Shown: piece after piece, positions 2,380 through 55,467 of the stretch
Layout of the letters: each line of letters opens with the position of its first letter
How positions within the stretch are numbered: position 1 is the stretch's first letter
NCBI RefSeq assembly: GCF_006345805.1
Contig: NC_042998.1
Location: forward strand, 42,718,001-42,782,000
DNA from: Octopus sinensis
Lineage: Eukaryota
DNA: 64,000 nt
Direction: 5' to 3'
The notes under the pieces: model-generated
The model's input: the letters and a program-made list of their open reading frames with translations, nothing else
Told to the model about the DNA's origin: nothing
The model's database searches: none
Translations under genes and position numbers: made by a program

Positions 2380-3280
2380 TACATGACTCGAACGAAGTAC
2401 GTACAGAACCAGAAGAAGAAACAGCTGAGAAGAATTCCAACTGGATCTGGTCAAACAGGAAGAGAAGTGAATTCCAAAGCATAATTTACTCTAAATCAAC
2501 TAATGTCTTCAAATGAACAGGTTACAACACCAAGGTATCGTGGATCGGAGCACCTTAAATGTAGACAACGATACAGAATGTCGAAACAGAGTGACCTGGA
2601 TGCGACCCCCTTAGCGTAAGGGCCGAAAAACTTGCTTGTGAAGATCTGAAAAAATACTTGACACCGGTTCCACATAGTTCTCTCCCCTTAGTTTATAAAT
2701 TCTCTTGGCATGTTTATGCTATTTGATCGCGTAACTTTGTTTATATAATATTAAATCTCAATGTGAATAATGTCAAAATCGTTTTGCTTTCTGATTAGTC
2801 TTTAAAGGTAGGAAATCATTTGTAATTTTCCCTTCTTTTAAATAACTGATATGCATTGAAATAATATTAGCTATTTTATATGAGGAAGTTTTAGGGTCTG
2901 TCTCTAAGTTCCACTTTGTAGGGATTTGTAATGGTTAATTAAACCTGACACGGTTTTTTAATGGTAGTTCTTTTATCGGTTCATTCGAGATAATAAGCTG
3001 TATCAATTTTCGCGAGAGTTGATCTTTACATCTTGTTTTTGACGCTTAAAGCTGTTTTAAGTTGAGTAAATTTATAAGGTGGTCAGATATATGGTGTTCT
3101 GAAGGACATAGCGACATGTGAGAACCGGTTTCTGCGGAATCCTGGTTTAAGCACCCTGTATAACCCCTCGTATCCTTTTTATTTTTTGGAATTTTTAGAA
3201 AAGTTTTGCGAATTTGTTTTCTACTCACGGGAATTCATACAATTATGCAAAAACGAAACAAAATCATGTTTAGGCGTGTG
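2380..3280. promoter_or_regulatory. Candidate IBA57 promoter / non-coding first exon region
   Basis: Non-repeat stretch visibly richer in CpG than its surroundings, with TTTCGCGAGA at 3008-3017. The IBA57 ATG directly follows a splice acceptor, implying an upstream exon. Confidence 0.45.
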
Positions 3281-16976: not shown

Positions 16977-17671
16977 TATATTTGGGGATGGTTATGTTTT
17001 GCCAGGTAAACACACACACACTATTTATTTGATCTTCACTTTAGTTATATTAGTATTATTTTTTGTTTAGTTTATTTGTCTGTGAAAGTCCTTCCGTCAC
17101 ACATTTTGTGACCTCTTCAGTGACACTTTATTCCATGTGTCTCCTCTTGCCCTGCCTTTTCCATTTTTCTCTTTTGTAGTAATAAAACTAATGTGAAATA
17201 GAAATAATACATTTCTAAATATCTCAGAGAGATTTATGCAGTAGTGGTACGATAAAGGCCCTTTATAGTTTTGTAATCAGTGAATTTATTTCACTAGAAT
17301 TCCTATATGTTTACAAGAGCTAGATAGGCATCTCCAATTAGCAGGCCATGCTACTCCAGACTGATGATGAGCAAAGACTCAGAAACTAGTCTCTGGGTGC
17401 AGGCTTAGCTGAGTGAAGGTGCTAATCGCCCCCTTGTAAACATAAGGACACAGGAAATGTGTCAAGGCCGACAGGAAGCATTGCTGCTTCCTAGGGCTAA
17501 ATAGCAGTAGCATGATTCCCTTCATGAGACTCACATTAAGTTGACAGTATACAACTACTTTACCGTACCACTACTGCATAAATCTCTCTGAGATATTTAG
17601 AAATGTATTATTTCTATTCAAATAAATAGTGTGTATGTTTAATTAACAAAAGATGACCATCTCCAAATATA
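16977..17671. mobile_element. Fold-back element with nested inverted repeats enclosing a hammerhead (Penelope/retrozyme-like)
   Basis: Inner IR 17197-17257 / 17558-17618 (61 bp, 1 mismatch). Outer diverged IR ~16977-17032 / 17618-17671. Confidence 0.7.
17356..17396 (+). ncRNA. Minimal type I hammerhead ribozyme motif
   Basis: CCAGA-CTGATGA-TGAG(caaaga)CTCA-GAAA-CTAG-TC-TCTGG: perfect stem I and stem II, both catalytic boxes, palindromic ACTAGT helix III, GUC cleavage triplet at 17389-17391. Confidence 0.8.
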
Positions 17672-33886: not shown

Positions 33887-34102
33887 GTAATAATAATTAA
33901 TCCTTTGTACTGCAGGCACAAGGCCGCAGATTTGTGGGGAGGGAACTACTTGATTACATCAACCCCAGTGTTTCACTGGTACTTAATTTATTGACCCCCA
34001 AAAGGAATGAAAGAGTAAGTCAAACTCTGCAGAATTTGAATGTTCCAATTCTTATTCTGTGTACCATAAAATCAAATTTCTGAATTTTTATCATTTCTTA
34101 TT

Positions 34103-34145
34103 TTGAACTTGACAAAGACTGACGTACTGTTGAAATACTGTTCAA
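34103..34145 (+). ncRNA. Minimal hammerhead motif, degenerate upstream copy
   Basis: TTGAAC-TTGACAA-A-GACTG(acgta)CTGTT-GAAA-TACT-GTTCAA: perfect stem I, one mismatch in stem II, cleavage-site TATC changed to TACT. Confidence 0.5.
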
Positions 34146-34490
34146 TAAAATATCTTACAATCTTCGTCTTGACTGTTTACCTTTGTGAAGAGTTACATCA
34201 ATCCTTTTTTAAAATATAAAAATCAAGTAGATTGAGATGATTGATTTTATGGTACACAGAATAAGAATTGGAACATATAGAAATTCTGGAAGTCACCAAA
34301 GCAGCCGGGTGTCTAAGGAAAATCGTAATGTAAATTACAGCTTTTGCGTTTTATTCCTTCTCACGGTTGGCTTGTCGGCCCTGTTAGTTTTGCTAGACCC
34401 CAGTGTTGAACCCAATCCTGGGCCCATGGATTTCATGCCATTCAAATATGAATCAGAAATTAAATTTCTGAATTTTTATCACTTCTTATT

Positions 34491-34533
34491 TTGAATTTGA
34501 CAAAAACAGACGTACTGTTGAAATATCGTTCAA
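34491..34533 (+). ncRNA. Minimal hammerhead motif, U3-A8 variant (downstream copy)
   Basis: TTGAAT-TTGACAA-A-AACAG(acgta)CTGTT-GAAA-TATC-GTTCAA: stem I with one G-U, U3/A8 covariant core, perfect 5-bp stem II, predicted cut after C34527. Confidence 0.65.
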
Positions 34534-34604
34534 TCAAATATCTTACAATCGAATCGCACTCTTCGTCTTAATAATAATAATAATAATAACAATAATAATA
34601 ATAA

Positions 34605-34670
<66 letters not shown>

Positions 34671-34672
<2 letters not shown>

Positions 34673-54519: not shown

Positions 54520-55467
54520 ATGGATAACCTAACCATGGAAGAAGTGAACTCCGACAGCTCGTGTGATTTTGCACGTTGCTGGACTGTTGCCCTTCAGGTC
54601 ACCTTATTGGGACTAATCTCAGCTGTGGGCACATTCAGCAACTCTTTAGTCATCCTGGCTATATTTTTGTTTGATGAACTTCGAACCAAAGCAAAGTCTT
54701 TTGTATGTAATTTAGCTGTCGCTGATCTGATTTTGTGCCTCTTCGTAATTCCTCTACGTACAATGATGATGTTTGCCAGACAACCTTTTGGCTTATGTCA
54801 TGTAACGGTGGTAGCACAAGCCACCTTCGTCTATACTTCAATAAATACACTAGCTGCCATTTCATATAATCGTTTTGTATTGACGATGAAGACCAGGTCT
54901 CAGTACGAGAACACTTTTACTAAACGTAACGTGTTCCTCATTTTATCAACAGTTTGGTGTTTGGCTTTTGGTGCTTCCTTCATGGCTGTCATGTGGACTG
55001 GAGCACTTAATGTCACCTATGACAACAAGACACGTGCATGTGTGTTTTTGAGAGGAAATGCAACAATTTCAGCCCTTCTGATGGTGCCACTATCATTACT
55101 CTTTTCACCGTTGTTATTAACTCTTTATTTCTATGCCCGTATTTTTTACTATGCTCGTCACTCCGCTGTGTCAGTAACTGGCCATCGCCCAGATGACATT
55201 AGTTTCACTTACAAATTGTGTTGCATCACCATTCTTTTCGGAATTTTAAACTTCCCAGCTTGCATTTTGGCTGTAGTACAGGTATTTAGTAGTCCGGATG
55301 CAAATGAAGTTTTGATTCGTTTTTCCATCATCATCCAGCTACTTAATTCTGCTGTCAACCCAGTTATATATGGATGGAAAGTGCCAAAATTTCGAAATGC
55401 GTTTATTCGGATGTTACGTTTGAATACTTGTTTCAAAAGGGCCACAGTGCAGCCTATTAACCACTGA
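54520..55467 (+). CDS. Rhodopsin-like (class A) GPCR, single coding exon, 315 aa; resembles the melatonin receptor/Tre1/Moody/GPR84 group; orphan
   Basis: Seven hydrophobic segments: TM1 GTFSNSLV, TM2 NLAVADL, TM3 C...ISYNRF, TM4 W, ECL2 Cys (TRACVF), TM5 FYARIF, TM6 FGILNFP, TM7 NSAVNPVIYGW, helix 8 FRNAF. N-glycosylation sequons present. AATAAA at 55548 and 55679. Confidence 0.93.
   Translation: MDNLTMEEVNSDSSCDFARCWTVALQVTLLGLISAVGTFSNSLVILAIFLFDELRTKAKSFVCNLAVADLILCLFVIPLRTMMMFARQPFGLCHVTVVAQATFVYTSINTLAAISYNRFVLTMKTRSQYENTFTKRNVFLILSTVWCLAFGASFMAVMWTGALNVTYDNKTRACVFLRGNATISALLMVPLSLLFSPLLLTLYFYARIFYYARHSAVSVTGHRPDDISFTYKLCCITILFGILNFPACILAVVQVFSSPDANEVLIRFSIIIQLLNSAVNPVIYGWKVPKFRNAFIRMLRLNTCFKRATVQPINH

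Follow-up and report, generated by a model that had tools for sequence, protein, structure and literature searches.

A 2A-like motif behind a hydrophobic leader in Penelope-like elements with a SUMO-protease-like domain, traced from a deleted copy in Octopus sinensis

The short ORF analysed here almost certainly carries the leader of a Penelope-like element (PLE). It lies in a window of 64,000 nt of Octopus sinensis DNA (NC_042998.1, positions 42,718,001 to 42,782,000). As a locus it is unremarkable, a copy that is probably dead, but its lineage is apparently undescribed: it combines U3-A8 hammerheads, a domain resembling SUMO proteases and, behind a hydrophobic leader, a 2A-like motif of non-canonical form. 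Judged from sequence, it is quite possible, at slightly less than even confidence, that DPSVEPNPGP is a family-conserved 2A-like motif at which productive skipping frees the leader from the enzyme part. More tentatively, we propose that this undescribed lineage is widespread and that its motif, DP(S/G)(V/I)ExNPGP, forms a new subclass of StopGo, in which a shifted aspartate would replace D12 and by which a membrane-targeting leader would be shed from a SUMO-protease-RT-endonuclease polyprotein, while a sister clade would use a basic flank to the same effect. RNA self-cleavage, ribosome skipping and a protease would then be combined in one element.

Translation gave an 85-aa product, MIDFMVHRIRIGTY...LLDPSVEPNPGP-MDFMPF...FLF*, in which NPGP ends at residue 63 and Met follows as residue 64, confirming what had been read from the DNA alone. 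The N-terminal profile of the family matched this ORF with an E value of 3.8e-17. Its most hydrophobic 19-residue stretch starts at residue 35 (mean hydropathy 2.64, compared with 1.45-2.46 in 11 relatives), and the helix at residues 35-53 appears signal-anchor-like. The closest named proteins, from octopus, are 81-88% identical over the motif region. A Pfam search found no domain in the ORF or in the parent-type protein P0002, and a search of the ESM Atlas with the leader gave no usable match. The features of the locus are listed in Table 1.

Table 1. Features of the PLE copy and its flanks, in window positions
Feature	Position	Strand	Basis or remark
Left flank: truncated at the junction, from an abundant interspersed repeat unrelated to the PLE	33900..34039	.	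Many similar copies in the window
Exact 36-nt inverted copy of 34241-34276 (codons 2-14)	34040..34075	-	5' insertion junction
5' pseudo-LTR, 3'UTR-derived repeat	34076..34208	+	Lacks 11 nt that the 3' copy has
5' minimal hammerhead, damaged	34103..34145	+	C for U16.1 (34138), stem II mismatch (34120)
5'UTR spacer, pseudo-LTR to ATG	34209..34236	+	Core-to-ATG distances
85-aa chimeric ORF	34237..34494	+	PLE leader (residues 1-75) and 10 read-through codons
N-terminal motif MxDxxx(Y/H)RxRIG	34237..34278	+	In nearly all relatives having the N-terminus
Hydrophobic helix, residues 35-53	34339..34395	+	Hydropathy; helix 29-54 in the P0031 model
2A-like decapeptide DPSVEPNPGP, residues 54-63	34396..34425	+	Translation, relatives, family variants
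Codons 1-12 of the helical N-terminal domain of the parent	34426..34461	+	P0002 match stops there
3' pseudo-LTR	34462..34569	+	Source of the ORF's last 10 codons and stop
3' minimal type I hammerhead, U3-A8 core	34491..34533	+	Descriptor search; intact
(AAT)n microsatellite, 3' end of the element	34570..34672	.	Sequence; ATT-repeat loose ends in family contigs

The original prediction had taken the leader to be that of a parental retroelement ORF, and this was borne out: P0002 and long relatives carry the leader together with retroelement domains. By protein search, the clade that has the leader is that of the PLEs with hammerheads in their pseudo-LTRs (pLTRs). The leader retrieved P0002, in which DPSVEPNPGP-MDFLPFKYESEIE leads on through helical and protease-like domains to a pre-RT motif. 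A search with P0002 returned 10 long proteins, nine with RT and/or GIY-YIG domains (Pfam) and the tenth a 686-aa fragment; a profile search returned 18 proteins, including seven new ones with the family N-terminus. Intact relatives (1,245-1,461 aa) show the order MxDxxxYRxRIG, hydrophobic helix, DPx(V/I)ExNPGP, helical domain, Ulp1/SENP-like protease, RT and C-terminal GIY-YIG endonuclease, an arrangement that follows from P0002, the Pfam domains of the relatives and the protease fold taken together. A single ORF with RT and C-terminal GIY-YIG, as in endonuclease-bearing (EN+) PLEs, was found in P0005-P0014, P0022-P0026, L002 and L003. The window copy has neither domain and P0002 ends at the pre-RT motif; judging from relatives about 40% identical, the octopus parent would have encoded both. 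Pairwise identity among nine full-length members is 39-51%. In an RT tree with unnamed outgroups on long branches, the four members that have RT and a basic KNxQR sequence in place of PGP formed one clade (91/91), and the PGP members were poorly resolved. No relative was found in viral contigs, and the five matches in prokaryotic genome contigs were all protease-only.

The protease domain is assigned to the Ulp1/SENP family (C48, clan CE) by its modelled fold and its His-Asp-(Gln)-Cys residues. A structure model of P0031 had a mean pLDDT of 86.6, and the top Foldseek matches of its protease were SENP5, Ulp1 and SENP1 (E 4e-5 to 2e-4). The His, Asp, Gln and Cys are conserved among relatives, and Pfam PF02902 reached its cut-off in P0013, P0030 and P0036. 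The domain likely removes SUMO or ubiquitin-like tags or processes the polyprotein. Ulp1-like proteases without the family leader or RT were also seen at about 75 loci (74 of 80 metagenome loci, most of L006-L085), so the module is common to other elements; in L007 and P0028 the same protease is paired with more distant RTs. In L073, near 2900-3000 (+), the canonical LLSLSGDIELNPGP is followed by a PHD-like Cys/His motif, an arrangement of LINE type, with a Ulp1-like domain adjoining. L003 (1-4060) holds a full element as a circularly permuted contig with its break within the ORF, at an AAT repeat, which fits a tandem array or a collapsed repeat.

Conservation of the motif was assessed in 20 distinct leaders, a pool without P0002 (same family as the window copy) and without P0027 and P0031 (close to P0022). 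Fifteen end in PGP and five, all of one RT clade, have a basic DxRxxKNxQR. The larger group was defined by PGP, so that its occurrence in 15/15 is circular, and two of the searches feeding the pool used motif-bearing queries and thus biased it towards the motif. Within the PGP leaders, D10 is found in 15/15, P11, V/I13 and N16 each in 14/15, and E14 in 12/15. Position 12 is S in eight, G in four and A, R or V in one each, never D, and position 15, which varies, is exactly the free position of 2A. The predicted conservation of DPSVEPNPGP with a displaced aspartate therefore holds in the relatives, the fixed D standing two places upstream of the usual 2A position. Among the eight P0002-retrieved proteins with an N-terminus, four have DPx(V/I)ExNPGP, one DGVHRKQPGP and three DxRxxKNxQR; loci chosen by protease patterns alone included three with an N-terminus, one with NPGP and two with KNRQR. 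Full-length ORFs also occur among the 5/20 leaders that lack PGP. The net charge of the motif is -1 to -3 in 11 E-bearing leaders, 0 to +1 in the three that have lost E, and +2 to +4 in the five with KNxQR. In the octopus family, 27 of the variants listed fall in the ORF (14 synonymous, 13 non-synonymous); the three listed within the decapeptide are all synonymous, and 8/10 in codons 13-25 are non-synonymous.

The ORF lies between direct repeats of 94 nt (34069-34162 and 34457-34550; 91% alike, 388 nt apart), and such direct pLTRs with a type I minimal hammerhead are characteristic of PLEs. The distance from hammerhead core to ATG is 128 nt in the window copy, 103 nt in L002 and 111 nt in L003. 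Further hallmarks of PLE insertion at the locus are the 36-nt inversion, the (AAT)n end and the ATT loose ends; position 34208 is a frequent end of family contigs, on ATT repeats. Next to the inversion, the left flank shares 8 nt, CAGAATTT, with the reverse strand of the element, and the (AAT)n tract is likely the insertion target. Insertion would have been target-primed at the AAT repeat, with template switches giving rise to the internal deletion and the inversion. In summed contig depth, a measure that gives no copy number, the hammerhead repeat (34069-34208; runs X1, X6 and X7) exceeded the leader about 20-fold, which suggests many copies standing alone; such solo hammerhead elements likely make up a large family. 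The window copy is an internally deleted PLE, probably dead and single. The repeat of the left flank is SINE-like and occurs at more than 15 other places in the window, often adjoining AAT tracts.

The deletion junction lies at 34461/34462. Contigs from two of four runs cross 34461 and run on into P0002-type parent sequence, which fixes the junction; no bridging of 34461/34462 was seen among the contigs listed from the four runs, which is weak evidence that the junction is private to the window copy. The leader had been predicted to be fused by deletion to an ORF tail in the 3' repeat. The deletion does join the leader to the 3' repeat, but residues 76-85 are most likely not the tail of the parental ORF but 3'UTR read through after the deletion. 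The ORF stop lies 75 nt (L003) or 79 nt (L002) upstream of the hammerhead core in relatives and 2 nt upstream in the window copy, the loose ends of family contigs at the tail position are T-rich with an in-frame TAA, and residues 76-85 had no score against a profile of the family's GIY-YIG end. On these three grounds FLNFYHFLF* was rejected as a GIY-YIG tail, despite its likeness to F/YxxxYxxLF*.

The ORF had also been described as hammerhead-flanked. This stands for the 3' copy, which is intact, but not for the 5' copy, which is damaged and fails the descriptor. The intact ribozyme, with the core UUGACAA, has a 6-bp stem I, a 5-bp stem II and a palindromic UA instead of helix III, and cleavage is predicted after 34527. 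At the two damaged positions, the majority letters in family contigs from three DNA runs (T at 34138, A at 34120) are canonical. The descriptor for minimal type I hammerheads was written to allow a U3-A8 core, as known from PLEs of Schistosoma (PMC4209133), and gave two matches in the window compared with 0.13 per shuffle (30 shuffles). The same U3-A8 core is present at both ends of L002 and, in L003, between the GIY-YIG stop and the leader. Across four rows, two of which belong to one family, 35/36 cells are paired and 7/9 pairs have two-sided changes, within a structure drawn from these same rows. Rfam gave no hammerhead match at gathering or E-value thresholds, a CUGAnGA scan gave none near the locus, and free folding of the repeats produced no hammerhead shape. 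CTGA at 34119 was rejected as a hammerhead core, as it results from a private change where the family letter is A (34120). At 17355-17401 (+), another minimal type I hammerhead stands alone, with a canonical C3-G8 core and a CUAG palindrome, apparently in an intron of what we take, from ORF pieces, to be a YgfZ/IBA57-like gene.

With its topology read from hydropathy and charge, the basic N-region and hydrophobic helix would direct the growing chain to the ER, where its C-terminal part would end up in the lumen. With partial skipping at G/P, the protease-RT-endonuclease would stay in the cytosol, in limited amount. In the sister clade, the basic flank (net +2 to +4) would keep the C-terminus cytosolic and solve the same problem. 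Productive skipping is favoured by the exact 2A register, by acidic and basic flanks that track the presence of the motif, and by its position about 60 aa from the start, within the 40-80 aa of LINE 2As (PMC3708506); in sea urchin NLRs, a signal combined with 2A gives dual targeting (PMC4981915). Through G, 4/15 leaders (P0010, P0018, P0025 and L001) match the expanded functional core, (D/G/C/N)(V/I)ExNPGP (PMC12846837). Against skipping, P11 and S12 fall outside the known functional sets, 3/15 leaders lack E14, and a whole clade lacks PGP. The window motif departs from both D(V/I)ExNPGP and the expanded core by S at position 12, which is not among the functional variants in the available part of PMC12846837; rare natural C, N, V and T variants are active in their own context according to the same source. 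The upstream hexapeptide classes LLLLSG, RDLTxE, DLTxDG and PAPRLV found no match in the leaders, 14/15 of which end in DP upstream; 28% of viral 2A cases also lack a hexapeptide class (PMC12846837). In the available part of bioRxiv 2026.09.24.754024, no D12 substitution in P2A or F2A reached the activity threshold, most G11 changes abolished activity, and 43/580 RT-associated 2A candidates were highly active, with 56% in the mid-range.

Other readings of the motif accept the PLE origin. One, which we consider unlikely, is that it holds back RT synthesis by making the ribosome stall or drop off, with no productive skipping. Non-canonical positions 11-12 and a leucine-rich stretch upstream would suit such a brake, and 59-70% of tested retrotransposon 2A-like sequences mainly lowered protein abundance (bioRxiv 2026.06.17.732966); yet a pure brake need not hold V/I-E-x-N-P-G-P in exact 2A register, and the G-type members match the functional core. 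Somewhat unlikely, in our view, is that D-x5-N-PGP is a structural cap, or a site cut by signal peptidase or the element's own protease, after a membrane anchor, its 2A likeness being inherited or convergent and without effect on the ribosome. The KNxQR clade shares D10 (4/5) and N16 (5/5), intermediates exist (DPSV(A)(R/K)NPGP, DGVHRKQPGP), the motif sits in a low-confidence loop between helices in the P0031 model, and the element does encode a protease. The pattern of fixed and free positions nevertheless copies 2A closely, and Ulp1-family enzymes cleave after di-glycine, not G-P.

Two further explanations concern the locus as a whole. The frame is open between two hammerhead repeats and animal retrozymes derive from PLE pLTRs (bioRxiv 2026.07.22.740005), as would suit an active retrozyme-like unit in which two hammerheads excise a 388-nt RNA encoding the 85-aa peptide. 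We regard this as very improbable: the 5' hammerhead lacks U16.1 and one stem II pair, minimal hammerheads work weakly and as dimers only (PMC4209133), and, as weak evidence, the junction is unbridged among the contigs listed. Non-LTR retrozymes consist of tandem units each with a complete hammerhead (bioRxiv 2026.07.22.740005), and one of the two is complete here. The probability that non-coding DNA produced the motif by chance is negligible. Its first 16 bases resemble the abundant repeat of the window (15/16, E 1.8), but chance is refuted by protein-level conservation in distant full-length elements; (V/I)ExNPGP occurs only in this ORF in the six frames of the window, where base composition predicts about 0.0008 occurrences.

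The family resembles the Neptune-type C-terminal-endonuclease PLEs in its single ORF with RT followed by GIY-YIG, its DKG-type motif, hammerhead pLTRs, inverted junction piece and microsatellite target (PMC8557442). Compared by features and not with named references, it adds the hydrophobic leader, the 2A-like motif and the Ulp1-like protease. The CxxCxxC linker of the Neptune type is present in P0005, P0011 and P0013; a CX2-5CxxC linker before GIY-YIG was seen in 3/11 proteins, is absent or reduced in eight, and is missing from most PGP-type members. Unlike Hydra PLEs, the family keeps DKG, at about 4-5 kb, and unlike Naiad and Chlamys its endonuclease is C-terminal. The hammerhead shares with that of Schistosoma Cercyon the U3-A8 core, an extra base before stem II, a palindromic helix III stub and a position in both pLTRs, but stem II is 7-8 bp in Cercyon and 5 bp here, and Cercyon belongs to another PLE lineage and host group (PMC4209133). 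In marine invertebrates, the RT-bearing ORFs of APE-type LINEs (CR1, L2, Crack, Rex1, Ingi) likewise have a 2A-like motif, 40-80 aa after the N-terminus and behind a hydrophobic stretch (PMC3708506). The LINE motif reads GD(V/I)ExNPGP and stands before an APE endonuclease; that of the present GIY-YIG elements reads DP(S/G)(V/I)ExNPGP and leads into a helical domain and the protease. Sea urchin NLRs likewise have a hydrophobic leader ending in a 2A-like motif and provide the split-targeting model, but theirs are 26-aa N-terminal signals of host proteins with the canonical D and measured activity (PMC4981915), whereas the PLE helix follows a 35-aa basic region and its motif is known from sequence alone. 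Cysteine proteases of the deconjugating kind occur in other retroelement ORFs, Ulp1-like in NeSL and Utopia-1_TSP (PMC4640811) and Josephin-like in Dualen and Chlamys-1_cBra (PMC8557442). These elements use a restriction-like endonuclease or an N-terminal GIY-YIG, and the available parts of both papers link them to neither 2A nor hammerheads.

A literature search for Penelope with NPGP gave no match, and within the literature covered, which lies outside Repbase, Dfam and subscription journals, no 2A or Ulp1-like protease was found in C-terminal-endonuclease PLEs. DPSVE, DPSIE, DPGIE and DPGVE are absent from the supplements of the 2A surveys PMC12338488, PMC13405545 and PMC12846837, and the family's protease motifs from the available PLE supplement of PMC8557442, where the Josephin-like domain of one Chlamys type is the only protease-like mention for PLEs in the accessible text. 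Octopus PLEs have been counted, in the available part of PMC13282606, without detail on leader, 2A or Ulp1; PMC11167929 gives further context. Class A 2As have been described in 'telomerase-like' RT elements, which may be PLEs (bioRxiv 2026.09.24.754024).

In retroelements, 2A recoding is documented for APE-type LINEs (PMC3708506). If skipping is real here, it would extend to a third class, the telomerase-related PLEs. The natural series of S, G, A and R at position 12, the losses of E and the sister clade without PGP would directly test which contacts inside the ribosome tunnel can stand in for D12. Most motifs of this family escape searches that take GD or D as their anchor. The membrane-type leader and the SUMO-protease-like domain point to unrecognised steps in PLE biology, such as the site of protein synthesis and evasion of SUMO-linked silencing.

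Four octopus gene models (P0001, P0003, P0004 and P0017), three of them C-type lectins, contain an in-frame PLE piece equivalent to 34367-34461. At its entry point in these models, the family letter at 34365 makes a pyrimidine tract with a CAG acceptor; the piece is due either to an erroneous gene prediction or to a 2A-like exon truly taken up by host lectin genes. The DPGVESNPGP-type pattern had three matches, two of which look like chance. The other lies in L086 (793-821, -), presumably an RNA-virus-like contig with RdRp-like and capsid-like ORFs, where DPGVESNPGP stands in the third ORF after a phospholipase-A2-like stretch, between two domains, a placement that speaks in favour of skipping. 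Elsewhere in the window, 54520-55467 (+) holds an intronless 315-aa ORF, which by its motifs resembles a G-protein-coupled receptor.
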